From assembly GCA_937907055.1 (NCBI GenBank), contig CALCTW010000064.1, positions 10,134 to 42,133 on the forward strand: a DNA stretch of 32,000 nt. Direction: 5' to 3'. Under the pieces are notes generated by a model. That model was not told the DNA's origin and ran no database searches. It saw only the letters and a list, made by a program, of their open reading frames with translations. Positions within the stretch are counted from its first letter, which is position 1; every line of letters starts with the position of its first letter. Source of the stretch: an uncultured Clostridia bacterium. GTDB taxonomy: Bacteria > Bacillota > Clostridia > Christensenellales > Aristaeellaceae. The translations under genes were made by a program, and so were the position numbers. Shown piece by piece: positions 1 to 32,000 of this stretch.

Positions 1-176
1 TTCAGGGTATTAAAATACCCCAGGTAATACATGCGCTCCTTCAGGGCATACACATCATCGCCGCTGTCTCCCTGCCTCAGGGTACGGTACTGCGTTTCCG
101 CTGTCGCGGCGCTCATCAGCATCACGCCCAGCAGAAGGATCGCCATAGCAAACAGCACACGCGCCAGTTTTTTCAT
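1..176 (-). CDS. 5' part of a secreted peptidoglycan-binding-domain protein (continues past the left edge)
   Basis: Hand translation from the reverse-strand ATG (176-174) gives MKKLARVLFAMAILLLGVMLMSAATAETQYRTLRQGDSGDDVYALKERMYYLGYFNTL. This is a signal-peptide-like N-terminus followed by the G..G..V..L...L..LGY pattern of PG_binding_1 domains. It is absent from the ORF track because fewer than 60 aa lie in the window. Confidence 0.5.
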   Translation of the reverse strand, partial: MKKLARVLFAMAILLLGVMLMSAATAETQYRTLRQGDSGDDVYALKERMYYLGYFNTL

Positions 177-461
177 TCCGGATTCGTTCTTCATCATCAG
201 ATCCTGTTTTCCTTTATCTGTTCGTCCGGTTCGGCCCGCGCCGCGGACCATACTCCGGCTTATTTGTCTATTTCGCCGCGAACTGATGTTTTCCTGTTTT
301 TCAGGCTCTCAAATCATCATGATCACAGTCATTTTTTCTGTTTTTCTTTTGTCAGGGTCTTAAGAAAGGCGGTCCGGCAGTTCCCCGCGCCCCGGCCGCC
401 TATCAGCTTCGGGAGCAGAACAGCATTATCAGGCGCTGATCCGCGTACTGTCTCCACCATC

Positions 462-506
462 AAAAAACCGCGGCAGTCCTTCTTCTCAGAATCAGAACTG
501 CCGCGG
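462..506 (-). terminator. Rho-independent terminator downstream of potD
   Basis: 10-bp perfect arms ccgcggcagt (468-477) and actgccgcgg (497-506). On the minus strand they are followed by a T6 run (A6 at 462-467 on plus). The structure lies 15 nt after the potD stop. Confidence 0.6.
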
Positions 507-520
507 CTCTGTTCAGGCGA

Positions 521-1558
521 TTATTCGCTCAGAACCTTCTCCCAGTAGTTGTTATACAGGCTCAGGGTCTTGTCATCCAGATCATGATAGAACTCGCAGC
601 GGGCGATCACTTCGTCAGAAGGATTGATCGTGCTGTTCTCGGTGTACTCTTCACCCATCAGATCGATGGCGCCCTGGTTAGGGCTGGAGTAGTAGATGTA
701 TTCGCAGTTCATCTGCGCGATGTCGGGGCGGCACAGGAAGTTGATCAGCTTCTCAGCGTTCTCCTTGTTCTTCGCGCTGGTGGGGATTACGAAGGGATCG
801 ATCCAGATGTTGCTGCCCTCTTCAGGAACCGCGTAATCCAGGTTCTCGTTGCCGTCCATAGCGTACAGCGCGTCACCGCTGTAAACCACAGCCAGCGCGG
901 CTTCGCCGTTCATCATCATGTCCTTGGTCTCATCAACGTAATAGGCCTTTACAAGGGGCTTCTGCTCACGCAGAATATCCAGCGCGGCCTTCAGTTCCTT
1001 GCGGTCGGCACTGTTCATGCTGTAACCGTTCATGATCAGGCCGATGCCCATGGTATCACGAAGGCTGTTCATCATGATGATCTCATTGGCATACTTCTCG
1101 TCCCACAGCACCTTCCAGGTCGTCACTTCTTCCTCGGAAACGCGGGTCGTATCATACAGAATGCCCAGTGTGCCCCACATGAAGGGAACCGTATACTTGC
1201 TCTCGGGATCATAGTCGGCGTGCTTCAGGTTCTCCTTGATATAGGAAAAGTTCGGCACATTATCCATATTGATCTCCTGGATCAGGCCTTCCTTGATCAT
1301 GCGTTCCACCATATAATCGGAAGGAACGACCACATCATAAGCGCCTTCATTGGCACGCATGGAAACCAGCATTTCTTCGTTCTGAGTAAAATACATGCAG
1401 TTGACCTGAATACCGGTTTCGTCTTCAAAGATCTTCAGCACTTCCGGATCCATGTAATCAAACCAGTTGTACAGGTTTACGACTTCCTGCGCGGAAGCGA
1501 AGGAGACCATGGAAAGGAACATGACCACTGCCAGGAAAAGAGCCATCCACTTTTTCAT
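521..1558 (-). CDS. potD: Spermidine/putrescine ABC transporter substrate-binding protein
   Basis: ORF 521..1576. PotD-family sequence (NLYNWFDYMDPEVLKIFEDETGIQV...). I prefer the start at MKKWMALF (ATG 1558-1556), preceded by GAGGAGGA and followed by a signal peptide ending ASA-QE. Stop is TAA. Confidence 0.9.
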   Translation of the reverse strand: MKKWMALFLAVVMFLSMVSFASAQEVVNLYNWFDYMDPEVLKIFEDETGIQVNCMYFTQNEEMLVSMRANEGAYDVVVPSDYMVERMIKEGLIQEINMDNVPNFSYIKENLKHADYDPESKYTVPFMWGTLGILYDTTRVSEEEVTTWKVLWDEKYANEIIMMNSLRDTMGIGLIMNGYSMNSADRKELKAALDILREQKPLVKAYYVDETKDMMMNGEAALAVVYSGDALYAMDGNENLDYAVPEEGSNIWIDPFVIPTSAKNKENAEKLINFLCRPDIAQMNCEYIYYSSPNQGAIDLMGEEYTENSTINPSDEVIARCEFYHDLDDKTLSLYNNYWEKVLSE

Positions 1559-1648
1559 TGTCGTTATCCTCCTCAATGTTTCACGGATACGTATCTGTAT
1601 CCTTTTATTTCAAAGCTATGCTTTGGAATCGATGTCAGGTTTTCCGGA

Positions 1649-2425
1649 TTACTTTCTCTCATCCGGCTCCGTGGTACGCTTGTTCACCACGATCAGCAGC
1701 ACCAGCATCACCACAAACATGATGGAGCTCAGCGCGTACATCGTAGGCTTGATGCCCTTGCGTGCCTCGGAATAAATGAGCGTTGACAGGTTCTGCACCA
1801 GCGGAGAGGTGGTGAAGTAACTGATCGTAAAGTCATCCAGCGACAGGGTAAACGCGAAGATCGCGCCGGTCACCACACCGGGCAGGATCTGCGGCACGAT
1901 CACATGACGCAGCGCGTAGCCGGGTGTCGCGCCCAGATCCAGCGCGGCCTCATAGGTGTTCTGGTTCATCTGCTGTAGCTTCGGCATCACCGATACGATG
2001 ACATACGGAATATCAAATGTGATATGCGCGCACAGCATGGTGATATAGCCACGTTCCACACGGGTAAAGATGAACAGCAGCATCAGCGAAACACCGGTCA
2101 CGATATCCGGCATGGTCATGGGGATGTTGTTCAGCATCAGCATGATATTGCGCGGTCTGTTTTTCATCGAATAGATACCGATGGCGGCCAGTGTGCCGAT
2201 CAGTGTCGCGAAGACAGTCGCCAGCGCTGCGATCGACAGTGTGATGCCCAACGCCTTCATGATCTCATCGTTCTTGAACAGTTCACCGTACCAGGCAAAG
2301 GAGAAGCCCTCCCAGTTCGCGCGGCTCTTGCCGGCGTTGAAGCTGAAAACGATCATCATGATGATCGGGATATACATGAAGAAGATCAGCAATCCCAGAT
2401 AAACACGTTTCATCAGCTTGCTCAT
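1649..2425 (-). CDS. potC: Spermidine/putrescine ABC transporter permease
   Basis: ORF 1649..2530. The PotC-like sequence begins at [30 protein letters not shown]. Its ATG at 2425-2423 shares one base with the potB TGA stop (TGATG). Stop is TAA. Confidence 0.9.
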   Translation of the reverse strand: MSKLMKRVYLGLLIFFMYIPIIMMIVFSFNAGKSRANWEGFSFAWYGELFKNDEIMKALGITLSIAALATVFATLIGTLAAIGIYSMKNRPRNIMLMLNNIPMTMPDIVTGVSLMLLFIFTRVERGYITMLCAHITFDIPYVIVSVMPKLQQMNQNTYEAALDLGATPGYALRHVIVPQILPGVVTGAIFAFTLSLDDFTISYFTTSPLVQNLSTLIYSEARKGIKPTMYALSSIMFVVMLVLLIVVNKRTTEPDERK

Positions 2426-4615: not shown

Positions 4616-4667
4616 ATGTCCAGATCCCTTTCCGAATCGTTTGATTTGTTAAACAACGGTCGCCCTC

Positions 4668-4886
4668 TCAGAAGGTGGGCGGATTGGAGATCCACAGCAC
4701 CTTGGCGGTCCTGCTTCCGCGGTTTATCAGGTAATGATCCTGCGCCGGATGAATACAGAAGCTTTCACCGGTCTTCACCTTGTATCGTTTTTCCCCGATG
4801 ACCAGCGTCACAGTCCCTGAAAGCACATAGCCGAATTCCTCGCCCTCGTGCGGCGGCAGCTCCATGCTCTTTCCCCCGCCTTCCAT
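4668..4886 (-). CDS. Cupin-domain C-terminal part of an HTH-cupin regulator, separated from its N-terminal part only by an in-frame TAG
   Basis: MEGGGKSMELPPHEGEEFGYVLSGTVTLVIGEKRYKVKTGESFCIHPAQDHYLINRGSRTAKVLWISNPPTF matches the cupin core of PuuR-like regulators. It is in the same frame as, and directly contiguous with, ORF 4887..5225. Stop is TGA. Confidence 0.7.
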   Translation of the reverse strand: MEGGGKSMELPPHEGEEFGYVLSGTVTLVIGEKRYKVKTGESFCIHPAQDHYLINRGSRTAKVLWISNPPTF

Positions 4887-5225
4887 CTAAATCAGGATCG
4901 GCTCCATCGCGTTTTTCTGCGCGCTGGGGATCAGCCATGTCACCTTGCCCTTCAGGATCTCATCGTCTTCCTTCTCAAACATATCGTTCGCGCTGAAAAC
5001 GATCTTTTCTTCTTCTTTTGTTTTGCTGAAGAACTCCTGTAGCGAGGAGCCGAGGCACTCCAGCATATCCGTTAATGTCGCGATGCTCGGAGAGGCCAGA
5101 TTTCTTTCCACCTGTGAGATAAAGCCTTTGCTCAGCTCACAGCGGTCCGCCATCTCCTCCTGCGTCAGGTTGCGCTGCAATCGCAGCAGTCGCAGGCTCT
5201 CGCCGATATCCATCTTTCCATTCAT
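4887..5225 (-). CDS. XRE-family HTH N-terminal part of the HTH-cupin regulator heading the pot operon; ends at an internal TAG (4889-4887)
   Basis: LRLLRLQRNLTQEEMADRCELSKGFISQVERNLASPSIATLTDMLECLG is a typical HTH_3/XRE motif. GGAGGG lies 8 nt upstream of the ATG at 5225. The ORF stops at cta (=TAG) at 4887-4889, in frame with the cupin ORF. Confidence 0.8.
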   Translation of the reverse strand: MNGKMDIGESLRLLRLQRNLTQEEMADRCELSKGFISQVERNLASPSIATLTDMLECLGSSLQEFFSKTKEEEKIVFSANDMFEKEDDEILKGKVTWLIPSAQKNAMEPILI

Positions 5226-5252
5226 TGCAAAACCCTCCGTTTTGCCTGAAAT

Positions 5253-5672: not shown

Positions 5673-5792
5673 ACCTGTTTTCTCCCGAAACCCTTGGGTT
5701 AATGCTGATAAGGATAAAATCTATCAGCCGTCGAACGAGTGTACATTTTCTCAGCTGAACAAAACGAAGTGTATTACAAGGAGGACGAACCC

Positions 5793-6175
5793 ATGAGTAA
5801 TTTGGCAAAGTATATTCATGATGACAGCAATGGCTTAAAATATACTCTGTGCATCGTGACTACTATCTGCCTGATCCGGGCGATGAGCCGGGTTATTCCT
5901 TGGGCAAGTATGGCATGATGCGAATGCAATACCTGAAGGAGCATCGTCCTGGCCTGTACACCGGGCTGCTGCTCTCCGGCAAGCTGAATAATGATCTGCA
6001 CCAGGTTGATGTACAGGCGCAGCATCTGCTGGACACGATGATACCGCAGATGGCGAAAGAAGCCGGTGTGACAGAGCATCTGAAAATGATGGATCAGCTT
6101 CGTTGGGTCGGGATGATGAACGCCATCAAGAGTCAGGCTGAAGAAATCATTTGGAATGAAATCATTCATAAGTAA
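5793..6175 (+). pseudogene. tnpV: TnpV-like transposon protein gene, frameshifted near codon 19
   Basis: AAGGAGGA (5778-5785) then ATG 5793 gives MSNLAKYIHDDSNGLKYTL. The family-typical sequence HRDYYLPDPGDEPGYSLGKYGMMRMQYLKEHRPGLYTGLLLSGKL...AEEIIWNEIIHK continues in another frame from 5852, with 2 extra nt (tg) at 5850-5851. The original frame stops after 42 codons. Stop is TAA. Confidence 0.6.
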
Positions 6176-6181
6176 AATGAA

Positions 6182-6208
6182 CGGGTGCTGCTGTAAATGC
6201 AGTACCCG
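6182..6208. terminator. Bidirectional terminator hairpin between convergent tnpV and the anti-sigma gene
   Basis: Arms cgggtgctgc (6182-6191) and gcagtacccg (6199-6208) with one mismatch and a 7-nt loop. T-rich sequence follows on both strands. Confidence 0.5.
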
Positions 6209-6246
6209 CCTTATTGTGACCAACCAGGAAGAAGATGATTTTGTCT

Positions 6247-7875
6247 TTATTTCTGAAGGAAATCGCTAATAGTCACAACTCCACCATCATTAGTACGATT
6301 ATTCTCGACACTCTTTACTACTCCGGTATGTGCATCAATAATCACAAACCGTGTTGCAGAAGCAATTCTCCATTCAGGCTGTTCAGGGTTAGTGACAATG
6401 TAGAACACATAGACATCATCTGCAGTTAGTTTGTCGCCAAAGTGCTCTTTAATCACCATAAGGGCAATGCCGACTGCATCATCCTGTGTGATTGCTTTGC
6501 TATCAGGCATCCCATTAATATTCCTTGTCCACTCCCAAACTCCGCTGCCCTTGCCTTCGAAATAGGGATGATTCAACGCATACTCATTTACGATCGGGCC
6601 CCATACCGTTGAAAATGCAGCTTTCTCTTCAAGAGTCCACGCGTAATAATAATTTCCCTTCGAATTCATAAAGTCTTCAGTCATTCCAAGTTCACTACAG
6701 CGCTTCCGCCAAATATCTGCAAGTGTTTCATACTGCCGATTGACAGAATCAAACAGTTTTCCAGCAGGTTCAGCATCAATATAGCTGCCATCAAATCCCA
6801 ACAGAACATTCCATTTGACTTCACCATGATTGCTCCAAGTAATAAGCCAAACAGGTTCTTCACCGTTGCAATACAGATCGCAATAGATAAGCTTTGCCGT
6901 AGCCTCCATGAAATCAAGATCCGTGTACGGTACATTCATAATTTCACCCAACGCGGATCTTGCTTCAGCAATTGCAATATCTGTAGATACACAGTCTGCA
7001 GAGACTTCCGCCGCCTTCGCGCCTGCATCGATTTCACAGTTCCAAGGATAGAATTCTGTCTTGGGTCCAGATACACCAAGCATCTCGCCAGTTCGCGTCA
7101 TATAGATACGATACGCAAGTCCATAACCAAAGTTAATCTCCCAGAACGGTTCGTCGCTTGGTGCACCCACAGTATTATAAGGATCCATGGAGAAGATAGC
7201 ATCAACACTCATCGCATTCAACCGATCCTCTTCAAGACTAAACATTGCCAATACAGATTTCTTTGCGATACCAATCGCTTCATTACGAGTTATATCTGTA
7301 TCACTCGGTACTACGTAAATTGGCCAATCCATTCCATACTTCCCATACTGTTGCAAAATGGATGTATACAGCGCTCGGTTCTCATCCGACCACATTTCAA
7401 TCGGGCCGAGTTCACGAGCCATAGCATTATAGGTATCAATGTATGTCATACCTTCAAAATGCATCGCCAGAACTTCGTCAGCCACTTCTTGTCTTTCGGA
7501 TTCATGAGTTGTTCTCCAAAGATTTGCTTCTTCTTCACTCAGAACTTCGCAGTCACTCATTAGCTTAACCAATTCAACCCTTGCATTGGATGGCCATTGT
7601 TCGTATTCACCATAAGTATTCTCCAATGCTGCAAATCCTCCAAAATAATTTGTCAGTCCAATTGCTAATGCAGTAACCGTAAACAGCATCAAAATCAAAG
7701 CTGCAACAAAACCAATAGACATCTTTTTTTTCATAACTATTCCGTCCTTTCCAATGCGTTCCGCATTCGCTGCGTTCAGCACACGCTGTGCAAGGTACGG
7801 GTTAGGCTGGATGAAGGCTGCGTCTTGATTCATAGCCTTCTGGACTTTCTTTACATTCTCACGATACTCATCCAT
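6247..7875 (-). CDS. Membrane-anchored anti-sigma factor candidate with a large extracytoplasmic PepSY-like repeat domain
   Basis: ORF 6247..7971. The likely start is MDEYRENV (ATG 7875-7873), with AAAGGAG upstream and an 8-nt overlap with the sigma gene stop. About 50 cytoplasmic aa precede one TM helix (MSIGFVAALILMLFTVTALAIGL) and a ~470-aa ectodomain. No zf-HC2 motif. Stop is TAA. Confidence 0.65.
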   Translation of the reverse strand: MDEYRENVKKVQKAMNQDAAFIQPNPYLAQRVLNAANAERIGKDGIVMKKKMSIGFVAALILMLFTVTALAIGLTNYFGGFAALENTYGEYEQWPSNARVELVKLMSDCEVLSEEEANLWRTTHESERQEVADEVLAMHFEGMTYIDTYNAMARELGPIEMWSDENRALYTSILQQYGKYGMDWPIYVVPSDTDITRNEAIGIAKKSVLAMFSLEEDRLNAMSVDAIFSMDPYNTVGAPSDEPFWEINFGYGLAYRIYMTRTGEMLGVSGPKTEFYPWNCEIDAGAKAAEVSADCVSTDIAIAEARSALGEIMNVPYTDLDFMEATAKLIYCDLYCNGEEPVWLITWSNHGEVKWNVLLGFDGSYIDAEPAGKLFDSVNRQYETLADIWRKRCSELGMTEDFMNSKGNYYYAWTLEEKAAFSTVWGPIVNEYALNHPYFEGKGSGVWEWTRNINGMPDSKAITQDDAVGIALMVIKEHFGDKLTADDVYVFYIVTNPEQPEWRIASATRFVIIDAHTGVVKSVENNRTNDGGVVTISDFLQK

Positions 7876-8389
7876 ACAGATACTCCTTTCCCAGTACGTC
7901 ATGCAGCTTCGCATGCGCTTTTTTGATTCTTCTTGAAACCATTGATATCGTAATGCCGCTGATATTGGCAATCTCCTGCATCGTCAGCTCCTGGTAATAG
8001 TAGAGGATGATAACCTCTTTCAGCTTGTCAGGCAACTGCTGTATAGCCGCCGCAAGATCAGCGGCATCCTGATCGTATTGACCATTGACGGCGATTTGCA
8101 TATCCTCCGGCACGATGTTGCGATTGGTATGCCTGAACCAGGCACTCCTGTGCAGATTCCGGCATTCATTGATCGCTATTTTAGTCAACCAGGTCTTTTC
8201 ACTGCTGTCTCCACGGAACGTGTCCAATGCCTTGTATGCTCGCAGGAATGTCTCCTGTACCGCGTCTTCTGCTAATACACGTTCATGGAGGTATGCATAG
8301 CATATTGTCAGCAGTGAGGATTGATACTGTTCTACCATCCGTGTCAGTCGTTCTTCTCGGTTGCTGTCCGGGCCCTTGACAACTTCCAT
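7868..8389 (-). CDS. ECF-type sigma-70 family RNA polymerase sigma factor
   Basis: Region 2 (AEDAVQETFLRAYKALDTFRGDSSEKTWLTKIAINECRN) and region 4 HTH (LTMQEIANISGITISMVSRRIKKAHAKL). AAGGAGGTGAT RBS upstream. Stop is TGA. Confidence 0.85.
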   Translation of the reverse strand: MEVVKGPDSNREERLTRMVEQYQSSLLTICYAYLHERVLAEDAVQETFLRAYKALDTFRGDSSEKTWLTKIAINECRNLHRSAWFRHTNRNIVPEDMQIAVNGQYDQDAADLAAAIQQLPDKLKEVIILYYYQELTMQEIANISGITISMVSRRIKKAHAKLHDVLGKEYLYG

Positions 8390-8421
8390 CTGCTGATCAC
8401 CTCCTTCACATGATTAGACAC

Positions 8422-8430
8422 ATCATAGCA
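8422..8430 (-). promoter_or_regulatory. Possible extended -10 (TGCTATGAT) upstream of the sigma gene
   Basis: The reverse complement of atcatagca (8422-8430) is TGcTATGAT, about 33 nt upstream of the start codon. No good -35. Confidence 0.25.
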
Positions 8431-8554
8431 CATTTTGTTGAATGGTTTTTCCTTTTCTTTTATATAATTTTGGCAGTCACTGCATGATGATGCTGTGACT
8501 GCCATTTTGTGATCCGGAGGGTGTCCTACCACTATGGATGCAGGATTAGCCCTT

Positions 8555-9280
8555 TCACATGATCGTTCCATCGGGAGACAGAGATACATACTCTTCACTA
8601 TTATCCGGAAAACGGATGGTAATCAAGTAGACCATATGCTCATGATTCACATCGCCGGCCTGTGTCATATAGTGCCAAATTACAGTAGAGCCTTTCAGCG
8701 CGTCTGGTGAATATCCTTTTTTCTGCAAATGATTCAGCGCAATCTCAATTGCTTCTCCGGGCTTAATGGCTTCATCGCCAGGGGTAAGATAGACATCAAC
8801 ATCACTTTCGACTGTCCACAAACCAACTGTAAACATCAAATCAGAGTACCAGACCCAAGTATCATTTTGCCAGTCAGTGTACGGCCCCATTTCGATCCAT
8901 GCAATCCGGTCGATGCTAATCCACTCCAAATCATTGGGATAGGCTTCTGCACCGTATCGTTTGAGCATATAATGATCAATCTCATCCTCGGATGCATGCT
9001 CAAGATGATCTGCCTGCACATCGTCAAGCAATCCATTCTTGTTCATGACTTGCAACATATAGTGTTTCTCATCCAGTGTCCAGTCTGCATAGTCACCGCT
9101 ATTCAGAGTAAGTTGTGCTAACTCTGAAAAAAACTCTGGCAAAAGAGTACATGGCGACGTGGCTATTTCTGTTGCTTCGGACAGAGTGGGTGATTTTGCC
9201 GGATATTTGGTAGCTTCTTCTGCTAAACAGATTTGACAGAACAGGCATACGCATAACAGAATAGAAATCAAGTGTTTCAT
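8555..9280 (-). CDS. Secreted protein paralogous to the anti-sigma ectodomain modules
   Basis: Signal peptide MKHLISILLCVCLFCQICLAEE, with AAAGGAGG RBS. It shares GDYADWTLDEK and AIKPGEAIEIALNHLQKKGY-type modules with the anti-sigma protein (GNYYYAWTLEEK; AITQDDAVGIALMVIKEHFG). Stop is TGA. Confidence 0.75.
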   Translation of the reverse strand: MKHLISILLCVCLFCQICLAEEATKYPAKSPTLSEATEIATSPCTLLPEFFSELAQLTLNSGDYADWTLDEKHYMLQVMNKNGLLDDVQADHLEHASEDEIDHYMLKRYGAEAYPNDLEWISIDRIAWIEMGPYTDWQNDTWVWYSDLMFTVGLWTVESDVDVYLTPGDEAIKPGEAIEIALNHLQKKGYSPDALKGSTVIWHYMTQAGDVNHEHMVYLITIRFPDNSEEYVSLSPDGTIM

Positions 9281-9461
9281 AGAAACCTCCTTTTAATACC
9301 ACTTAATATCGTTTTCCAGCTCCTGACCGGGAGAAACTAACGGGAATTGTTCAACCGATCTTACCTCGCCGGTCCGTACATTGATCCTTGATTGCCTGCA
9401 TGGTGCGATCACCTCCTTTTCACCTATTTAGACGCGAATTGTTTTCCTTTTTATCGATGAA

Positions 9462-9490
9462 ATTCAAAAAATATAAAAAATGCTTGTCAA
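9462..9490 (-). promoter_or_regulatory. Candidate sigma-A promoter for the secreted-protein/sigma/anti-sigma genes
   Basis: On the minus strand: TTGACA (9490-9485), a 17-nt spacer, then TTGAAT (9467-9462). Confidence 0.3.
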
Positions 9491-9617
9491 TATAGAGAAA
9501 TACAGAACTTGAAAAGACCGGGAAGTCGCCCTCTCGGCCTGGGTCACATTATCTGAAACTCGCGTTGATCAGTTTGCCGTTCACAGCGTTGATTTCGCCC
9601 CAGGAAAAATCACGCTC

Positions 9618-9863
9618 GTGAGCAGCGGTCTCAGCATCCTTGTATACATAAACAATCACTGCGGGACATTCAATTCAATATCAAAGCGCAATCAAATCGT
9701 GAATGAGTATATTCAGAAAATCATCGTCCATGCGCCGGAGAAAGACAAGGGAATCCGGACACAGCGCATCCAGATCGTATTCAACTTTGCAGATGCAGTA
9801 ATGGATTCGCCGCTGAATGCATCCGCGGAGATTGTGACAAGCAGACAAGCAAAAACGGCATGA
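9618..9863 (+). pseudogene. C-terminal remnant of a large serine recombinase (TnpX-like tail)
   Basis: …QIVNEYIQKIIVHAPEKDKGIRTQRIQIVFNFADAV… resembles, from memory, the conserved C-terminal (DUF4368-type) segment of clostridial large serine recombinases. No resolvase catalytic domain lies upstream. Stop is TGA. Confidence 0.5.
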
Positions 9864-9883
9864 CTTTCGCCATACCGTTTTGC
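9854..9883 (+). terminator. Hairpin plus T-run at the end of the recombinase remnant
   Basis: acggcatg (9854-9861) pairs with cataccgt (9871-9878) at 7 of 8 bp, followed by tttt. Confidence 0.45.
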
Positions 9884-9914
9884 TAAGGCAATTGTTCCTT
9901 ATCCGTAATAACCC

Positions 9915-9943
9915 TTGCTTTTCGGTTCTGTTTGTGCTATTCT
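9915..9943 (+). promoter_or_regulatory. Candidate sigma-A promoter of the ctsR operon
   Basis: TTGCTT (9915-9920), 17 nt, TATTCT (9938-9943). It lies immediately upstream of the CtsR box. Confidence 0.35.
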
Positions 9944-9948
9944 TTTAA

Positions 9949-9965
9949 GGTCAAAGATAGACAAA
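9949..9965 (+). promoter_or_regulatory. CtsR operator (direct heptad repeat)
   Basis: GGTCAAAgatAGACAAA matches the established CtsR box (A/G)GTCAAAnan(A/G)GTCAAA at all but one position. It lies 30 nt upstream of the ctsR start. An inverted TTTGAC follows at 9970-9975. Confidence 0.75.
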
Positions 9966-9994
9966 CGTCTTTGACTGCTACGGAGGTGATCTTT

Positions 9995-10459
9995 ATGCGT
10001 ATCAGTGATATGATCGAAAACTTCATTAAAGAAATGATGCAGGAGGAACAGCCGGAGATCGAGCTCAAACGCAATGAGCTGGCCGAATACTTTCATTGCG
10101 CCCCTTCTCAGATCAACTATGTTCTGGCCACCCGTTTCACACCCGATCACGGCTATGTCATCAACAGCCAGCGCGGCGGCGGCGGCTGTATCCGCATCAT
10201 CCGTGTCAACCGCACAGGGGATGAGCATCTGGCCTATCTCATGCAGCAGCGCATCGGAGATTCTCTTGATGAGCAGACTGCCGCTGTCCTTTGCCGTCAT
10301 CTTGCTGAAAAGGGCATTGTCTCCGCAGAAGAAAGCGCCACCATGTACGCCGCGCTTTCCCCCGCTTCCTTCAGTATCCCCATCCCGGAGAATCTCAAAA
10401 ATGTCCTGCGCGCCCGCATCATGAAAAACATGCTGCTCTCCATCGCGCAGCGGCACTGA
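9995..10459 (+). CDS. ctsR: Class III stress-gene transcriptional repressor CtsR
   Basis: MRISDMIENFIKEMM…ELKRNELAEYFHCAPSQINYVLATRFTPDHGYVINSQRGGGGCIRI is a CtsR hallmark sequence. GGAGGTGAT RBS at 9982-9990. Stop is TGA. Confidence 0.92.
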   Translation: MRISDMIENFIKEMMQEEQPEIELKRNELAEYFHCAPSQINYVLATRFTPDHGYVINSQRGGGGCIRIIRVNRTGDEHLAYLMQQRIGDSLDEQTAAVLCRHLAEKGIVSAEESATMYAALSPASFSIPIPENLKNVLRARIMKNMLLSIAQRH

Positions 10460-10500
10460 CCGTCTTTTCATACCCCATCGCTTTTTTCAAGGAGTCATTT

Positions 10501-14654: not shown

Positions 14655-15515
14655 ATGTCATCAAAACACGGTGATTTTTCACGCGGTTCTGTTTCATCAA
14701 ATATCATCCGTCTCGCGCTGCCTATGATCGCGGCTGAGTTCGTGCACGTTCTATATAATATCGTGGATCGCATGTATCTCGGGCGCATTCCCTCCGGCGG
14801 CACGCTGGCGCTTTCGGGGATCGGCATCTCCTTTCCGCTCGTCACGCTCATCGGCGCGTTCGCGCAGCTTTGCGGCACCGGCGGCGCGCCGCTCTTTTCC
14901 ATCACGCGCGGCAGCGGTGATCAGGAAAAAGCGCGGCGTATCATGACCACCGCCTTCACCATGCTTCTGGTGCTGGGTGTCACCCTCACGGTGCTGCTCT
15001 TCGCGGCCGCGCCGTGGCTGCTCCGTCTCCTCGGCGGCGATGATGAGACCATCCCGGTCGCGCTTCAATACTTCCGTGTCTATGTCCTCGGCAGCATCCC
15101 TGTGCTCATCACACTCGGGATGAATCCCTTCATCAACGCGCAGGGTTATCCCGCGCTCGGCACCACCACGGTCGTCATCGGCGCTGCCCTCAATATCGCG
15201 CTCGATCCGCTCTTCATCTTCGTCCTCCATATGGATGTAGCCGGTGCCGCGCTGGCCACAGTCATCGCGCAATGCTGCAGCGCGCTGTGGGTGCTGTTCA
15301 TACTCACCGGCAAAAAGCTGCCGGTGCGCCTCGCCCGTCCGGCGATCGACCGCGCCTGCGCCAAAGAGATCGTCAAGCTCGGCGTCACCGGTTTTACCTT
15401 CAAGGTCACCAACAGCGTCACACAGGCCGTTGTCAATATCATGCTCAAGTCCTGGGGCGGCCTGCAGAGCACATTGTTCATCACCGCCGCCAGCCTCATC
15501 AATTCCGTCCGTTAG
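14655..15515 (+). CDS. MATE family efflux transporter, N-terminal two-thirds; ends at an in-frame TAG (15513-15515)
   Basis: MSSKHGDFSRGSVSSNIIRLALPMIAAEFVHVLYNIVDRMYLGRIP… is a typical MATE N-terminus. AGGAG lies 5 nt before the ATG at 14655. Confidence 0.85.
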   Translation: MSSKHGDFSRGSVSSNIIRLALPMIAAEFVHVLYNIVDRMYLGRIPSGGTLALSGIGISFPLVTLIGAFAQLCGTGGAPLFSITRGSGDQEKARRIMTTAFTMLLVLGVTLTVLLFAAAPWLLRLLGGDDETIPVALQYFRVYVLGSIPVLITLGMNPFINAQGYPALGTTTVVIGAALNIALDPLFIFVLHMDVAGAALATVIAQCCSALWVLFILTGKKLPVRLARPAIDRACAKEIVKLGVTGFTFKVTNSVTQAVVNIMLKSWGGLQSTLFITAASLINSVR

Positions 15516-16013
15516 ATCATCTCTCTGCCGTGCAGCGGCATCACCGGCGGCGCGCAGCCTGTCATCAGCTACAATTACGGTGCCAAAGCCTATAACCGCG
15601 TCTCCAAAGGCATCCGTTTCTCTCTGTTTGCCATCCTGATCGTCAACACGTTCATGTGGGCCATCGTCATGCTCTTCCCGGATCTGATCGTCCGCATTTT
15701 CAACAACGAAGATCAGGCGCTCATCGATGTCACCATTCCCTGCGCGCGCGTTTTCTTCGGCGCTTTCCCCTTCATGGCGCTTCAGTCCACCGGTCAAAGC
15801 ACCTTTGTCGCGCTCAACAAGCCCCGTCACGCGCTCTTTTTCTCCATGTTCCGCAAGCTCATTCTGGTCACGCCGCTCACGCTCCTGCTCCCTTCCATCG
15901 GCTTTGGTGTCAGCGGCGTCTTCTGGGCAGAATTCATCAGTCAGGTCATCGGCGCTTCGGCCTGTTTCATCACCATGTCCCTCACTGTGTGGCGGCACAT
16001 GAAGGAATCTTGA
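15516..16013 (+). CDS. MATE family efflux transporter, C-terminal third, same frame and contiguous with 14655..15515
   Basis: The codons directly after the TAG read IISLPCSGITGGAQPVISYNYGAKAYNRV. This is the conserved MATE motif at the start of the second 6-TM bundle. The first canonical start in frame is ATG 15654. Stop is TGA. Confidence 0.8.
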   Translation: MISLPCSGITGGAQPVISYNYGAKAYNRVSKGIRFSLFAILIVNTFMWAIVMLFPDLIVRIFNNEDQALIDVTIPCARVFFGAFPFMALQSTGQSTFVALNKPRHALFFSMFRKLILVTPLTLLLPSIGFGVSGVFWAEFISQVIGASACFITMSLTVWRHMKES

Positions 16014-17566: not shown

Positions 17567-19396
17567 TTGACCGAACAATTCGATGAAATGACAGTTATTG
17601 CATTACGTAAATTCGCAAAAGAAAATGGCATAAAACTGCCCGCCGGTCTTGATAAACAGGGGATCATTGATAAGATCACCGCCGAATATTCTGCCGAAGC
17701 GCCGGTACAGGTCTCCATGCCAGAAGCCGCTGTTTCTCCCGCGGCGACGGATCGTCCTGTCCGGAAAGCCTCCATCATCACGGATGACGAAGGCGATGAT
17801 GACGAGCCTGTTCTCACCGTCAATGCCTATCGTCCTTCCGTCCCCGCGGCTGTCCGTACCGCCGCTCCCGCTGCGCCTGCCGTGCCCAAACAGGGCAGCA
17901 GCCTCAGCACCATCTCCAGCAAAGCCCCCGCTTTCACCATGGAAGGGGCCCGGGCCTGGCATAACCCGCGCAGCTATAATCCCGCGCCCACACAGTCCTA
18001 TGCCCGCACCCAGTGGTCCACAAAGCCCGTATATCCGCAGGAGAATCCGTCCCGTCCCCCTGTCCGCACGGAAGAATCCCGTTCTTATCCCGTTTCCGCG
18101 CCGCGTACAGGCTTCGGCCCTGCTTCTCAGGAAGCCAATGAATTTGCCGGTGCCGATCACCGCGCCCATCCACAGGAAGCCGCTCTCCTTTCCGGAGAAG
18201 CTGCCCTCCAGCATGAATTCGCGAAGCGCGAAATGTATTCCGTCCAGCCGGAATCCGCGGAGCAGGCGGTCGATCTTCTCGCCTCCGGCGAATGCAAGGA
18301 TGCCGACGGCATTCTAGATGTGCTTCCTTCCGGCTATGGTTATATCCGTATCAATTCCTTGATCCCCGGCAAAGACGATGTTTATATTTCTCCCGCGCAG
18401 ATCAAGCGTCACGCGCTCCGTCAGGGTGATCGCGTCCTTGCCAAGCAGCGTCCCATCCGCGAGGGGGAACGTTACGGTTCCGTCCTTTGCATCACGGAGG
18501 TCAACGGTCTGCCCGTCAACGCGCCGGGCTCCCGCGCCGCCTTTGAGGATCTGACCCCCATCTATCCCAAAAAGAAGATCCGCTTTGCCGATCATGACGG
18601 TCTCACCGCCGATGTCCGTCTGCTGGATCTCATCAGCCCCATCGGCTTTGGTCAGCGCGCGCTCCTTTCCGTTCCCGCGCATGCCGGCAAGACCACGCTT
18701 CTGCGCAATATCGCCGTTGCCGCCGTTACCGCCGCGCCGGAGGCCTCCGTCCTCTGTTTGCTGCTGGATGAAAAGCCGGAGGAGATCACCGAGGCGTCCC
18801 TCGCCCTTCCCTGCCCGGTCTACGCCACAGCGGCCGATCAGGGCGCTGAGATGACCGTCCGCACCTGTGAGCTCGCGCTTGAGAACGCCATGCGCCTTTG
18901 CGAGCTCAAACAGCATGCCATCCTCATTGTAGACAGTCTGGATGCCGTTATGAATGCCTACAACTGCCTCGCGCCGCAGTCCAGCCGCACACTCACCGGT
19001 TCCATGTCGGCTTACGCCATGCAGAACGCGAAGAAGTTCTTCGCTGCCGCGCGCAATACCAAGGAAGGCGGCAGCATCACCATCATTGCCGCCTGTGATC
19101 CCGCCGGCCCCCTTTATGCCGAGCTTGGCAATGTCGCCAATATGACCGCCGCTCTGGATAAGTCGTTGACTGCCGCCGGTGTCTTCCCGCCCGTCGATCT
19201 CACCAAGTGCGCCACCCGCAAGGCGGAACTGATGCTCACGAAGCAGGAAGCGGCCAATATCCCGCAGCTTCAGTCCATCCGTTCCCGCTTCTCCGCGGCG
19301 GAAGCCATTCAACACATCACCTTCATGTTTGATAAAGCCCTTTCCAACGCCGCGCTGACAGACCGCCTTGAAAGCTGGCTCAGCATGATGAACTGA
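17567..19396 (+). CDS. rho: Transcription termination factor Rho with a ~200-aa low-complexity N-terminal insertion; TTG start
   Basis: Rho_N-like MTVIALRKFAKENGIKLPAGLDKQGIIDKI. CSD-like RNA-binding domain GILDVLPSGYGYIRI…GERYGSVLCITEVNG. ATPase with AHAGKTTLL and LLLDEKPEE. AAGGAGGA lies 8 nt before the TTG at 17567. Stop is TGA. Confidence 0.85.
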   Translation: MTEQFDEMTVIALRKFAKENGIKLPAGLDKQGIIDKITAEYSAEAPVQVSMPEAAVSPAATDRPVRKASIITDDEGDDDEPVLTVNAYRPSVPAAVRTAAPAAPAVPKQGSSLSTISSKAPAFTMEGARAWHNPRSYNPAPTQSYARTQWSTKPVYPQENPSRPPVRTEESRSYPVSAPRTGFGPASQEANEFAGADHRAHPQEAALLSGEAALQHEFAKREMYSVQPESAEQAVDLLASGECKDADGILDVLPSGYGYIRINSLIPGKDDVYISPAQIKRHALRQGDRVLAKQRPIREGERYGSVLCITEVNGLPVNAPGSRAAFEDLTPIYPKKKIRFADHDGLTADVRLLDLISPIGFGQRALLSVPAHAGKTTLLRNIAVAAVTAAPEASVLCLLLDEKPEEITEASLALPCPVYATAADQGAEMTVRTCELALENAMRLCELKQHAILIVDSLDAVMNAYNCLAPQSSRTLTGSMSAYAMQNAKKFFAAARNTKEGGSITIIAACDPAGPLYAELGNVANMTAALDKSLTAAGVFPPVDLTKCATRKAELMLTKQEAANIPQLQSIRSRFSAAEAIQHITFMFDKALSNAALTDRLESWLSMMN

Positions 19397-19471: not shown

Positions 19472-19477
19472 GTTCCC

Positions 19478-19719
19478 AAGGCCTTGATGGGATCAAGTAA
19501 CCCGCGTTTTCCGCTCACAGAGAGTTCCCGGTCGGTGTAAGGGAACAGCAGGGCGCAGGGTGAATACCTCCCGGAGCCCGGCACTGAACCACCTTCTAAA
19601 GAAAGGTCAGTAGGCTGCCGCCGGTACGCCGGTTACAGCGTTCATGAGGGAGCAGTTTGCTCCGAATGGAAGTGGTACAGCGGTTTCATCGCCTTCCCGG
19701 TTGGGAAGGCGGTTTTTTT
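19478..19719 (+). promoter_or_regulatory. T-box riboswitch leader, probable tyrosine (UAC) specifier
   Basis: AGTA (19496-19499), AG bulge AGAGAG (19519-19524), distal loop GGTGTAA (19534-19540), GAA-TAC (19562-19567) on the 3' side of the specifier loop, T-box AATGGAAGTGGTACAGCGG (19665-19683), then a terminator. tyrS lies downstream. Confidence 0.8.
19690..19719 (+). terminator. T-box leader terminator
   Basis: cgccttccc and gggaaggcg form a 9-bp stem with a ggtt loop, followed by a T7 run (19713-19719). Confidence 0.8.
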
Positions 19720-26050: not shown

Positions 26051-26116
26051 TGTATGTTTTATGATCTATCGGGGATCATCCGGAAGTGCTACGAATCTTT
26101 TCTCGCTGTGTTTTTC

Positions 26117-27831: not shown

Positions 27832-30151
27832 AATCGCCTCTGAAAGTCTCTATCTGATATTCTCCGTTCCGGAAACGGATCGTGATACATCCGGTCTCAT
27901 CGGTGCGCAGGACCGGGACGGCGGCCTCCTCCAGCCGCTGCAGCGCGGCGGCAGACGGCAGCGTAGTTGAAAACCTTGTCGCGGTGATCACAGCGCATCC
28001 GGGTGATACCGCGCGCAGGAATTGTTCCCCGGTCGATGTTTTGCTGCCGTGATGCGCCACCTTCAGGATCTCCGCCGGATACGCGGCGTATTCCTCATAC
28101 ATGGCGGGCAGATCGCTCATTTCCAGCATCGTCACGCCGTCCATTTCCAGATACAGCGCCATGGAATAATAATTGGCTTCCGCAGATGACTGGATCCTGC
28201 CTCTTTCCGGCCAGAGAACGGATACTTTCGCCCTTGATGTCGAAAACACGTCTCCCCGAGCCGTGTGGATCACAGGGATACCGTTCTCCATCAGCCGCTG
28301 CAGCATCAGCCGAGCTTCCCCGGAAGCAAACAATTCCGCCTCCTCCGGGATCACCACCCGTCCGATCTTCACATGCTGATCCAGCAGCTGCCGGATCCCG
28401 CCGAAGTGATCCATATGCAGATGCGTGATCATGACCGTATCCGCGCTCAGCCCCTGCGAAAGCAGATAGGCCGCCAGATCACCGCCGTTCTCCCCTGTAT
28501 CGATCACGATCGTCTCGCGGTCATCGATCAACACCGCGCAGTCCGCCTGTCCGACTGAAAGCTGCACGTAGCGCAGCGAATGATCCACGCCAAAAACACT
28601 GATCAGCACGATCCCGGCAGCGCAAAGGCCGCCGATGATGATCCTGCGATTCCTTTTGATGATAACATATCTGGTAATAACAATCAATAACACAGCCGAT
28701 AGCAGGATCACAGGCAGGGACGGCGTTGCCATCTGCACGGTCGCCCCGGGCAATTGACTCACCCACGCGATCGCCTTTGTAAACGCCCCTGTCACGATCC
28801 CGGCCGCGGACCCCAATGCCGCGCCGAGCGGCAGATAAATGATCCCCAGCACATAGATCACCGCGTAGAAGGGCAGCAGCAGGCCCATCAGCGCGCACAC
28901 AAAGGGATTGATCAGAAATCCGATCAATGATACCCGGTGGAAGGTGCAGACGGTCGGGATCATCACGCCCAGTGTGGCGGCAAAGGTCATCTGCCAGAAA
29001 CGCCAGAGCATATCCAGCGTATGATTACGGAAGCTCAGCGCGCTGAAGCGGTCCCCCAACAGGATGATGCCCAGCACCGCGCAGAAGGACAACTGGAAGG
29101 AGGCCGTAAACAGCTGCATCGGCTGGAACAGCAATATGATCAGAAATGCCGCCGCCAGCGCCGTAAGCGGATCTGTCCGCCTTCGGATGACAGAGGAAAA
29201 CAGCAATATTACCGTCAGCAGCGAGGCGCGCACGACCGGCGCGGTAAAACCCAGCAGCGCGCTGTAGCAGAGCAGGAACACGCTGACCGCGATCAGCTTC
29301 GTCCGGGGCGACAGATGGAAAAGCCGCAGAAACGCCTGCAATATCCCCGCGATCAGCGTCACATGAAGCCCGGATACCGCCAGGATATGCGCGATCCCGG
29401 CATCCGAAAAGGCGCTGTTCGTCTCATCCGGCAGATCCGCGCGGTAGCCCAGCAGCAATGCCTCCGGCAGCGCGCTCTGCTCCCCAAAGATCGCCCGGCA
29501 GCGTTCCACCAACTGCTGCCGCAGCCCGGCCAGCGCTCCGCTGACTGTAAAAACGCCCTTTTCCGTTACCTCGACCGCGGAAGAACACGACACGCCGTAG
29601 CCGATCCCCTTTGTGAGCAGATATGTCCTGAAATCATAGCCGTACGGGTTCTCCTGACCGGATGGCAGATAGACCCTGCCGGTCAGACGGACACGATCCC
29701 CGCCCGTCAGTATGCCTTCCGATTCTTCATCCGGCGGTGTCCATGTAAAGTAGGCCTTCCCCGCGCTCTGGGTGTTTCCGTCCGTGTCCGTCAGGGTGAC
29801 ATCCGTCAGATAGGCGCGCAGTTTTCCGGCATCCGTCCGTTCCACCGTGCTGCTGATCACGCCTGTGACCGTATACCTTCCCTCAGCGGGCCGCGCGGGG
29901 TTCGCCGCGAGGCCGGTCAGCAGAAAGCCGAGTGTCACAAACAGAATACAGGCAGACGAGAACAGACCTCGCTTAGAGCATCGCGCGAGGATCACAAGGC
30001 CAAGTGAAAGCACACAGGCCAGAAGCGCCGGGAGCAGGGAGAAAGCAAAATAAAAGCCTGCCAAAACACCTGCCCCGTAGCACAGGGCAAGTGTTACCAG
30101 CTTTCTTTCACGGAAGAAAGCGGTCATTTGGCAGAGCTTGTTTTTCATCAT
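27782..30151 (-). CDS. comEC: DNA internalization-related competence protein ComEC/Rec2
   Basis: 789 aa. Polytopic competence domain (…GIAHILAVSGLHV…) plus a C-terminal MBL domain (ITHLHMDHFGG). Stop is TAA. Confidence 0.9.
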   Translation of the reverse strand: MMKNKLCQMTAFFRERKLVTLALCYGAGVLAGFYFAFSLLPALLACVLSLGLVILARCSKRGLFSSACILFVTLGFLLTGLAANPARPAEGRYTVTGVISSTVERTDAGKLRAYLTDVTLTDTDGNTQSAGKAYFTWTPPDEESEGILTGGDRVRLTGRVYLPSGQENPYGYDFRTYLLTKGIGYGVSCSSAVEVTEKGVFTVSGALAGLRQQLVERCRAIFGEQSALPEALLLGYRADLPDETNSAFSDAGIAHILAVSGLHVTLIAGILQAFLRLFHLSPRTKLIAVSVFLLCYSALLGFTAPVVRASLLTVILLFSSVIRRRTDPLTALAAAFLIILLFQPMQLFTASFQLSFCAVLGIILLGDRFSALSFRNHTLDMLWRFWQMTFAATLGVMIPTVCTFHRVSLIGFLINPFVCALMGLLLPFYAVIYVLGIIYLPLGAALGSAAGIVTGAFTKAIAWVSQLPGATVQMATPSLPVILLSAVLLIVITRYVIIKRNRRIIIGGLCAAGIVLISVFGVDHSLRYVQLSVGQADCAVLIDDRETIVIDTGENGGDLAAYLLSQGLSADTVMITHLHMDHFGGIRQLLDQHVKIGRVVIPEEAELFASGEARLMLQRLMENGIPVIHTARGDVFSTSRAKVSVLWPERGRIQSSAEANYYSMALYLEMDGVTMLEMSDLPAMYEEYAAYPAEILKVAHHGSKTSTGEQFLRAVSPGCAVITATRFSTTLPSAAALQRLEEAAVPVLRTDETGCITIRFRNGEYQIETFRGDYGSSAVFLFRGGREPE

Positions 30152-30160
30152 TTCACGTGA

Positions 30161-30871
30161 TTATAATTCGATCGTCAGTCCGGGGTACGCGCTGAAGGTG
30201 TTGGGGAAGATCTCCTTGGCCTGCGCCACCAGTTTTTCCGGCGAAACGCTCGGGTTCATATGCGTCAGGCAAAGCTGTTTGGCGTTGGCTTCCGTAGCCA
30301 GCTTCGCGCAAAGCGCGGGAGACATATGAGGCTTTTCGGGTGCCCAGATCTCATTGGGGAAGGCGCTGTCCGCCATGATCAGATCCGCGTCCCGGCAGAA
30401 AGCGGGCAGTGTATCACATTCGTTGGTGTCACCGGTAAAAGCAAAGGTTTTGCCGCCGGCGGTCAGGCGCAGCGCGCGGCAGGCGACCGGATGATTGACC
30501 GGGCTGGTCTCGATCCTGATCCCGGCCAGTTCATAAGCATCCTGATGCTCATGCACCTCCAGCTTCTTCTGCTTCTCCACCAGTTCACGCAGATAGGTCT
30601 TCTCCTCCGCCGGGATATACACCGGCAGCACACCGCTGTTCACCTCAAACCAGTATCCCAGCACCGCCACATCGCTCATGTGATCGAAATGCAGATGGGA
30701 GAACAGCACAGCCTCCAGCTGGGAGGGCTGAATATACTGCAGCAGCTTCCCGGCCACACCGGCGCCGCAGTCCATCAGAATATACTTTCCGTCATGCTCG
30801 ATCAGATATCCGCTCGTCGCGGCATTTGCCGCGGGAAAAGGCCCGTTGCAGCCAAGAACAGTGATCTTCAT
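30161..30871 (-). CDS. MBL-fold metallo-hydrolase
   Basis: HLHFDHMSD motif, 236 aa, AAAGGAG RBS. Stop is TAA. Confidence 0.8.
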   Translation of the reverse strand: MKITVLGCNGPFPAANAATSGYLIEHDGKYILMDCGAGVAGKLLQYIQPSQLEAVLFSHLHFDHMSDVAVLGYWFEVNSGVLPVYIPAEEKTYLRELVEKQKKLEVHEHQDAYELAGIRIETSPVNHPVACRALRLTAGGKTFAFTGDTNECDTLPAFCRDADLIMADSAFPNEIWAPEKPHMSPALCAKLATEANAKQLCLTHMNPSVSPEKLVAQAKEIFPNTFSAYPGLTIEL

Positions 30872-30899
30872 TGTATTTCTCCTTTATCCGCGTTCATAA

Positions 30900-31703
30900 T
30901 CAATCTTCCAGCGTATAGACGTGCCCGGGATGATCACGCCAGGCCATATCCACATTGATCTCCGTGCCCAGCACCGCGCCCCGCTCGCACAAGGCGTTCA
31001 CCGAGGTATTCATGGCCAGCTCGGGCGTGTTATTTTCGCCGCTCAGGTGTCCCAGGATCGCGCGCTGCAGACCGTTATCACACAGCCTGACCAGTGCCTC
31101 CGCGCAGGCTTCATTGCTCAGATGCCCTTTATTGCCCAGGATCCTGCGCTTCAGCGCGGCGGAATAATGCTCATTATGCATCAGCATATCCGGGTCATGG
31201 TTGCTTTCCAGCAGCACCAGATCCGCGGAGCGGATCTCATCAAAAACAGAAGGCGTCATATGTCCCATATCGGTCGCGGTCGCGATTGAAAGCCCGCCGC
31301 AAAATACATGATAGCCCACCGGACAGGCGGCGTCATGCGGGATGGCGAACGGGCGGACACACAGATCCCCGATATACAGCTCATCGGTCACATCAAAGGG
31401 GCGGATATTCTCCTTGCGGATATTGCCGACAGAACGCGCCATCATATTCCAGGTGGGCTCCGTGGCATACACCGGCAGATCAAACTTCCGGCTCATGATG
31501 CCCACCGATTTGATATGATCGGAATGCTCATGCGTGACCACGATGGCGGAAAGCCTGGACGGATCCACCCCGACCGAGTTCAGCGCTTCGATTTCCTGCT
31601 TTCCGCTCATACCTGAATCGATCAGGATATAGGTATCTCCGCCCCGCACAAGCAGCGCGTTGCCGCTGGAGCCGGAGAACAAAGGACAAAACTGCAAGAT
31701 CAT
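30900..31703 (-). CDS. MBL-fold metallo-hydrolase, YycJ/WalJ-like
   Basis: FCPLFSGSSGNALLV…ILIDSG…VVTHEHSDHIKSVG resembles YycJ-type beta-lactamase-fold proteins. Stop is TGA. Confidence 0.8.
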   Translation of the reverse strand: MILQFCPLFSGSSGNALLVRGGDTYILIDSGMSGKQEIEALNSVGVDPSRLSAIVVTHEHSDHIKSVGIMSRKFDLPVYATEPTWNMMARSVGNIRKENIRPFDVTDELYIGDLCVRPFAIPHDAACPVGYHVFCGGLSIATATDMGHMTPSVFDEIRSADLVLLESNHDPDMLMHNEHYSAALKRRILGNKGHLSNEACAEALVRLCDNGLQRAILGHLSGENNTPELAMNTSVNALCERGAVLGTEINVDMAWRDHPGHVYTLED

Positions 31704-31879
31704 ATTTCAAAGAAACCTTTCCGGAAAAAACCTGCTTTGCAAGTCCCCTCCAACATAGTAGTATACCCCAGCGAACTAATCAAAGGCAACTTACATTTCT
31801 ATTAAATCCAAAGCATGAAAGCAAGGCCAAGCCTCAATGCGAAAACTGTATCCTGTGTGTTTCTAAAAATCGCGCGTGA

Positions 31880-31908
31880 TTGCAATTATCCTTCGGATAC
31901 GATATAAT
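31880..31908 (+). promoter_or_regulatory. Candidate sigma-A promoter for the gene starting at 31961
   Basis: TTGCAA (31880-31885), 17 nt, TATAAT (31903-31908). Confidence 0.5.
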
Positions 31909-31960
31909 GACTTTGGCCGGTCTTCCGGCAAGTTGATGAAGTTTTAAGGAGATTCTCTTT

Positions 31961-32000
31961 ATGAAGATCGCTGTCGCGTGCGACCCTGCCGGGGTCGTCC
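31961..32000 (+). CDS. First 13 codons of an unidentified gene (MKIAVACDPAGVV…), faintly RpiB/LacAB-like
   Basis: AAGGAG (31946-31951) lies 9 nt before the ATG at 31961. Too short for a family call. Confidence 0.35.
   Translation, partial: MKIAVACDPAGVV

Follow-up and report, generated by a model that had tools for sequence, protein, structure and literature searches.

The known changes of the bacterial genetic code that touch a stop codon all concern UGA (PMC8629427; 10.64898/2026.05.24.727570), and recoding of TAG has been reported for phages, where it is read as glutamine (Gln; code 15; 10.1101/2021.08.26.457843; PMC9523058), and for archaea, where it is read as pyrrolysine (Pyl; code 34; 10.1101/2024.09.30.615893). 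Neither a natural reassignment of TAG in a bacterium nor a natural loss of release factor 1 (RF1) nor an amber reassignment in Clostridia was found in the literature that we searched, in agreement with the statement of the initial annotation that no sense reassignment of TAG is established in bacteria beyond the use of Pyl. We analyzed a stretch of 32,000 nucleotides (“the window”) from contig CALCTW010000064.1 of an uncultured Clostridia bacterium, in which two genes, encoding a transcription regulator with a helix-turn-helix (HTH) and a cupin domain and a MATE efflux transporter, each contain an in-frame TAG.

From the comparison of strains and related species we consider it very likely that TAG is translated in this species, whatever the mechanism, and likely that UAG serves throughout the genome as a sense codon and not as a terminator. 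The complete reading that we propose would make the species the first natural bacterial lineage in which UAG is assigned genome-wide to a standard amino acid, with glutamate (Glu) as the foremost candidate, with RF1 lost and with a dedicated tRNA(CUA). This would be a fourth bacterial genetic code, found in an ordinary-sized gut or rumen Clostridia species of normal guanine-plus-cytosine (GC) content, with mobile elements adapted to it. To this reading as a whole we assign a probability of roughly 0.6; that the code in use is a bacterial one not described before appears fairly probable on the same sequence comparisons.

Two conserved genes with fixed in-frame TAG codons

The two genes and their TAG codons are listed in Table 1. 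The HTH-cupin gene is full length only if the TAG at codon 113 is translated. Pfam assigns residues 11-65 of the complete product to HTH_3 and residues 112-179 to Cupin_2, and homologues of about 180 amino acids run across the TAG. The MATE gene is full length only if codon 287 is translated; the Pfam MatE match then covers the whole protein, and among 7330 homologues the 120 best listed span 99-100% of the query. In the alignment the MATE homologues are collinear across the TAG, and in both genes homology picks up at the next codon. The initial annotation had both codons at the right position and in the right frame (4889-4887 on the minus strand and 15513-15515), and it was also right that no second lesion occurs, the TAG being the only interruption of genes of 185 and 452 codons.

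Strain DNA of the same species was available from ERZ27247138, ERZ27247132, SRR21151017, ERR6929694, SRR14246005, SRR14246008, SRR21150886 and GCA_045628485.1, assembled by different pipelines (ENA megahit, Logan and NCBI metagenome-assembled genome (MAG)). These independent assemblies from at least eight other samples, 94-98% identical to the window at the nucleotide level, carry both TAGs and no other lesion. The TAG of the HTH-cupin gene is kept in 12 out of 12 matching loci, and that of the MATE gene in the window and seven loci, the latter representing four further distinct strain sequences. Exact-sequence look-ups returned the 112-residue HTH fragment on at least 10 contigs, and the truncated MATE fragment as a cluster of four distinct sequences, each 286 amino acids long and ending at the same TAG.

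As a measure of selection we counted polymorphic codons among the strains on either side of the TAG and derived the ratio of non-synonymous to synonymous polymorphism (pN/pS). In the HTH-cupin gene 21 synonymous and no non-synonymous changes occur upstream of the TAG (pN/pS 0, P=6.7e-15 against neutrality), and 15 synonymous and three non-synonymous changes downstream of it (pN/pS 0.059, P=9e-8). The MATE gene has 31 synonymous and four non-synonymous changes upstream (pN/pS 0.046, P=1.7e-14), and 17 and one, respectively, downstream (pN/pS 0.018, P=3e-10). The position of the changes is informative as well. Codons 288-333 of the MATE gene, which directly follow the TAG, hold seven synonymous changes (codons 290, 309, 315, 318, 321, 322 and 332) and no non-synonymous one. 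As there is no ATG, GTG or TTG among these codons and they are constrained nevertheless, a restart of translation cannot explain the constraint on this gene.

Two very recent mutations or base-call errors, one of the two readings offered by the initial annotation, are excluded by the conservation in at least eight samples together with the purifying selection downstream of the TAGs. Its other reading, that TAG is not simply a stop in this organism, is supported by 14 in-frame TAGs in eight genes and by the lack of a clear TAG terminator in approximately 59 genes, as described below.

Table 1. Location of the TAG-bearing genes, their neighbours and other features in the window and in the flanking DNA of the species (L numbers denote strain loci).
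Feature	Location	Strand	Remarks
HTH_3 + Cupin_2 transcription regulator gene	window 4668..5225	-	185 codons, ends TGA, adjoins potABCD
In-frame TAG, HTH-cupin codon 113	window 4887..4889	-	fixed in all recovered strains
MATE (DinF-type) efflux transporter gene	window 14655..16013	+	452 codons, ends TGA
In-frame TAG, MATE codon 287	window 15513..15515	+	fixed in all recovered strains
46 MATE codons from TAG to next ATG/GTG/TTG	window 15516..15653	+	first start at 15654 (listing of open reading frames, ORFs)
527-residue protein gene	flank		TAG at codon 299; C-terminal Cys/His-rich motif
TetR regulator gene	flank		TAG at codon 108
HelD-like (RNA polymerase recycling helicase) gene	L100 12010-15402; also L103 865-4260		1131 codons
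Integrase-bearing element	L097 1-3400		adjoins rpiB, strain SRR21151017
HTH ORF of the integrase-bearing element	L097 1545-1787		80 codons, stops at TAG
Surface protein gene	L007 18280-20339; L008 12124-14180		~1640 residues; source protein P0299
potDCBA; HTH_3 + Cupin_2 regulator; ECF sigma / anti-sigma / ORF241 island	window		
ctsR-mcsA-mcsB-clpC; MATE transporter; mnmE; rho	window		
T-box-led aminotransferase-tyrS pair; UPF0029 gene; psuG; PfkB kinase; nucleoside hydrolase	window		
rsmG; holA; comEC; two MBL-fold genes	window		
Low-GC island	window ~5697-9909		between HTH-cupin gene and ctsR
ORF first named tnpV	window 9899-10471	-	ends TAA; antisense over ctsR
ctsR	window 9995-10459	+	ends TGA
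rho	window 17567-19396	+	609 residues
T-box leader (Rfam RF00230, 98.8 bits)	window 19475-19699	+	between rho and the aminotransferase-tyrS pair

Terminators and TAG codons across the species

In the window, 26 genes are supported by Pfam scans and by comparison with sister strains. The terminator is TAA for nine of them and TGA for the other 17, never TAG, and exactly two in-frame TAGs occur within the genes, namely those of the HTH-cupin and MATE genes. The initial annotation had counted 28 genes (TAA 10, TGA 18); these numbers had to be revised, and the absence of TAG terminators stood. One of the ORFs it had included, named tnpV, lies antisense over ctsR and is probably spurious, the overlapped ctsR being identical to CtsR called in sister strains. 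Orthologues of the window genes in other strains likewise use TAA or TGA only, and where the terminator is exchanged between strains, as at potC (1649-1651) and at the second MBL gene (30900-30902), the exchange is between TAA and TGA and never involves TAG.

The census was extended to flanking DNA of the species on sister-strain contigs, so that approximately 80 kb of the species were covered overall. About 59 distinct genes were scored (26 in the window, five to its left, 23 to its right and five strain-variable ones). All end in TAA or TGA with no clear case of TAG, one ORF of a mobile element being ambiguous. The nearest relatives of the species are rumen and gut MAGs with only 59-78% protein identity. 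TAG terminates 17% of the conserved ORFs (49 out of 285) in the closest species available, which are MAGs of rumen and gut Clostridia and Oscillospiraceae with a MATE identity of 59-66%, and 15% (60 out of 396) in more distant species; 16 out of 79 MATE orthologues end in TAG. With a share of 17%, 26 genes would all lack a TAG terminator with a probability of about 0.008, and 59 genes with one of about 2e-5. The initial suspicion that the lack of TAG terminators exceeds chance, which had been based on an assumed share, is upheld by the 15-17% measured in relatives, with a probability of about 0.008 for the 26 window genes. Of all stop trinucleotides on both strands of the window, 223 out of 1951 are TAG, and hence TAG is not generally avoided in this DNA.

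Altogether the species has 14 in-frame TAG sites in eight genes, two of these sites in the window, and the eight genes have zero in-frame TAA or TGA codons and zero frameshifts. In the gene of the 527-residue protein the TAG is retained in six distinct strain sequences, the source contig among them, and downstream of it 15 synonymous and 11 non-synonymous changes were counted (pN/pS 0.20, P=7e-5). A search with the concatenated TetR and 527-residue sequences gave only four matches. The HelD-like gene, situated in a strain-variable island with 38% GC, contains seven in-frame TAGs and no other stop. Two strains whose copies of the gene differ at 48 codons (26 synonymous, 22 non-synonymous) share all seven, the neutral expectation being approximately 77% non-synonymous changes compared to the 22 out of 48 observed. 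The density of TAG in this gene (7 in 1131 codons) is approximately 30 times that in the core genes of the window (2 in 9328 codons).

The integrase-bearing element encodes an integrase, HTH proteins, a CHC2 zinc-finger primase and a DUF3987 protein, and the genes of the latter two contain one TAG each. A scan of viral contigs with the primase gave no matches. The surface protein is built of repeated modules containing PVEWPKYVTVHY. Its gene has the TAG in one strain, and TAT (Tyr) at this position in the source genome, in another strain and in the paralogous repeats; this TAG could be an ordinary nonsense allele. The sequence context T-TAG-AT, which the initial annotation found shared by the two TAGs of the window, is a coincidence, as the flanking bases vary across 12 TAG sites. 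A tblastn control for interrupted genes in relatives gave noisy off-frame matches with all three stops and was not used. The best MATE match among contigs of genome collections is 66% identical, and the synteny around MATE is not kept in relatives.

Several further features of the window were recorded. The DNA is chromosomal with a GC content of 55%. The low-GC island (44% versus 57% GC) carries the genes of an ECF-type sigma factor, a putative anti-sigma protein of 574 amino acids and an ORF of 241 amino acids. Strain locus L009 shares it with the window, and it is missing in L001/L007 (same contig), in L008 and in L010-L012; no in-frame TAG was found within its genes. The T-box leader presumably senses tRNA charging for the aminotransferase-tyrS operon. 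The Rho protein has a long, low-complexity N-terminal extension rich in Pro and Ala, and its RNA-binding domain begins only at residue 247.

The probable decoding of TAG and its alternatives

The initial annotation had suggested an alignment of orthologues as a check, and when this is carried out the three fixed TAGs (HTH-cupin, MATE and 527-residue protein) all align to Glu. In the column of MATE codon 287, 78 out of 80 other species have Glu (GAG in 53, GAA in 25), and in that of HTH-cupin codon 113, 15 out of 22 homologues have Glu, the rest being T, H, S, A or D. Codon 299 of the 527-residue protein corresponds to Glu in the sole homologue (1 out of 1), in a poorly conserved stretch. For the HelD-like gene, three distant homologues have E, E and N at site 39, site 30 is uninformative and the other sites are mostly unalignable; the homologues, located on plasmids, are only 25-35% identical, and the aligned columns say little. 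TAG is a single G-to-T step away from GAG. Gln is less favored, because in that case most of the fixed sites should descend from CAG codons and face Gln in the alignments, and none does. We therefore regard Glu as the leading but tentative candidate for the inserted residue, with odds just short of even on these alignments; insertion of Gln or mixed near-cognate insertion is possible.

Database entries need to be read with care in this respect. Databases contain full-length versions of the TAG-split genes that have Q at each TAG, among them the public protein P0353 (locus L103). For P0353 the underlying DNA is TAG, and the Q is an artefact of the gene caller, which applied code 15 on short contigs. 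It was discarded as evidence for the residue, as was the similarly untrustworthy Q in the versions of the TetR protein (P0324-P0329). Entries translated with code 15 mask the recoding and suggest a wrong residue.

A potential mechanism can be outlined as follows. RF2 alone reads both UAA and UGA. As all genes end in one of these two codons, RF1 would be dispensable, and its gene (prfA) is probably lost or disabled. The reader of UAG would probably be a tRNA that carries the anticodon CUA. If UAG were decoded as Glu, changes from GAG to TAG would be silent and free to drift to fixation. The higher density of TAG in accessory genes compared to core genes suggests that the mobile elements of the lineage are well adapted to the code, while the core genome is only beginning to use it.

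Several observations weigh against a complete reassignment of UAG, or against Glu as its meaning. ARAGORN found no tRNA gene in the window and 13 strain loci (L001-L013), and prfA does not occur in the approximately 80 kb covered, which are only a part of the genome. TAG is rare in the core genes, with the two codons in 9328 given above, which is compatible with a reassignment that is young or weakly used, or else with efficient suppression instead of a complete change of the code. At the strain-specific TAGs the aligned residue is Tyr for the surface protein and Asn or Lys for TetR; these TAGs may represent replacements that are tolerated because the positions are variable. The distant DinF-BH structure has Met at the MATE site, and so an acid is not universally essential there. 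For the HTH-cupin gene alone, it is possible that the cupin half is made from a start located just after the TAG. In the integrase-bearing element the 80-codon HTH ORF stops at a TAG that is followed by 45 more open codons, and this TAG may be a real terminator. Finally, the support for TAG decoding is wholly comparative.

The alternative that survives best, although we consider it unlikely, is that UAG is unassigned: RF1 would be lost without a dedicated suppressor tRNA, and near-cognate tRNAs, mostly those for Gln but also those for Tyr, Trp and Lys, would decode UAG slowly, leading to a mixed product and lower expression as in engineered RF1-deficient E. coli. The very low density of TAG in the core genes, the variation of the residues at TAG sites (E, E, E, Y, N/K) and the lack of a tRNA gene in the window and the 13 scanned strain loci would all be in line with this. 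The HelD-like gene argues against it, as it keeps its seven TAGs under purifying selection, and seven inefficient read-through events in series would leave almost no product. Furthermore Glu is the residue aligned to each of the three fixed sites, and according to codon-anticodon pairing tRNA-Glu reads UAG poorly as a near-cognate.

A second alternative, which appears very improbable, is that the species carries pylTSBCD and inserts Pyl at TAG, like the archaeal lineages with code 34. TAG is the codon of Pyl, and methylamines are common in gut and rumen habitats. Archaea that read all TAGs as Pyl share the in-frame TAGs and the depletion of TAG terminators (10.1101/2024.09.30.615893). In bacteria, however, reports of Pyl are confined to a handful of methylamine methyltransferases and one serine dehydratase, TAG being a stop otherwise, and the fixed TAGs observed here stand in place of a strongly conserved Glu, to which Pyl, a bulky lysine derivative, bears little chemical resemblance. 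Within approximately 80 kb of DNA of the species neither a pyl gene nor a methyltransferase was found, and no structure resembling the pyrrolysine insertion sequence (PYLIS) follows three of the TAGs, although PYLIS is not needed in every known case.

Even less probable, by a small step, are old pseudogenes or split genes, that is nonsense codons fixed in the ancestor of the species with the halves either dead or made separately via a restart. The HTH-cupin gene gives some room for this, with an ATG immediately after the TAG and a second ATG with a purine-rich motif (GGGGGA) eight codons past it. Moreover, all strains belong to one species (94-98% identity), so common descent alone would account for a shared TAG. 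The purifying selection downstream, including the 46 MATE codons without ATG, GTG or TTG, speaks against it and already contradicts it for the MATE gene and the 527-residue protein; a break in MATE would also lie inside the C-terminal lobe and not at a domain border. All lesions are TAG, in-frame TAA or TGA codons and frameshifts being absent from the eight affected genes, and the missing TAG terminators would be left unaccounted for. Pseudogenes arising from nonsense mutations were accordingly rejected, given the strong constraint downstream, the lack of a second lesion and the fixation of three sites in all strains.

A sequencing, assembly or base-calling artefact, conceivable because the source is a MAG contig of 47,449 bp, is refuted by the same TAGs in independent assemblies from at least eight other samples and different pipelines.

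Two further mechanisms were considered and dismissed. Read-through stimulated by RNA structure found no support, as the 100 nucleotides after three of the TAGs fold no better than shuffled sequence (z = +0.89, -0.76 and +0.71). Ribosomal hopping or frameshifting at the TAG is at odds with homologues that have one residue per TAG column and with contexts that differ between sites.

Implications and comparison with described recoding systems

If genome-wide translation of UAG holds true, the species would be a free-living bacterium without a TAG stop, a reassignment otherwise seen in phages, eukaryotes and, as Pyl, in some archaea. The codon that depends on RF1 would then be open to capture in nature as well, and RF1-free E. 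coli would have a natural counterpart. With few TAGs in the core genome and many in mobile elements, it could serve as an early-stage case to test models of codon capture against those of an ambiguous intermediate. Genes with TAG would not be expressible in neighbours using the standard code, and incoming genes terminated by TAG would be read through. A natural pair of tRNA(CUA) and synthetase in an RF1-free Gram-positive background might also be of biotechnological interest. Standard annotation splits or truncates such genes, as seen for the MATE transporter, the regulator, the TetR protein and the HelD-like helicase, and some pipelines silently translate TAG as Gln.

The reassignments of UGA in bacteria comprise table 4, with UGA read as Trp (Mycoplasmatota and several endosymbionts), and table 25, with UGA read as Gly (Absconditabacteria and Gracilibacteria). 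The situation proposed here resembles them in that a stop codon is turned into a sense codon genome-wide, is gone from the terminators and leaves one release factor to serve the remaining two stops. It differs in that the codon is UAG, so that the dispensable factor would be RF1 and not RF2. In contrast to the reduced genomes of symbionts, it concerns a Clostridia species with a normal GC content (55-57%), in which the use of TAG in core genes is very low.

Phages with code 15 (crAss-like, Lak and other gut phages) also have in-frame TAGs decoded as a standard amino acid in microbial DNA of gut and rumen. They carry their own suppressor tRNA and infect hosts with the standard code (10.1101/2021.08.26.457843; PMC9523058), whereas the TAGs observed here lie in chromosomal genes and the fixed sites align to Glu and not to Gln. 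The TAG-bearing genes have housekeeping neighbours (potABCD, ctsR-mcsAB-clpC, mnmE, rho, tyrS, valS, rsmG, holA and rpmF). An origin of the DNA from a phage or jumbo phage was rejected on these grounds, the window and its flanks consisting of chromosomal housekeeping operons and a T-box leader.

Archaeal code 34 is a genome-wide reassignment of TAG in a prokaryote, where, as in the present case, conserved genes contain internal TAGs and TAG has vanished from the terminators, and as it barely changes the coding density it can readily be overlooked. It depends on the Pyl machinery and is found in Archaea, whose release factor is a single one, whereas we find a Glu pattern in a bacterial background of RF1 and RF2; these differences point to a different mechanism.

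The engineered RF1-free E. coli (C321.deltaA and related strains), in which all TAG terminators were replaced and UAG was set free for a suppressor tRNA, demonstrates a state in which RF1 is dispensable, and this is the state that the terminators of the present species would imply. The E. coli strains were made in the laboratory, whereas the state proposed here is apparently natural and common to wild strains from several samples.

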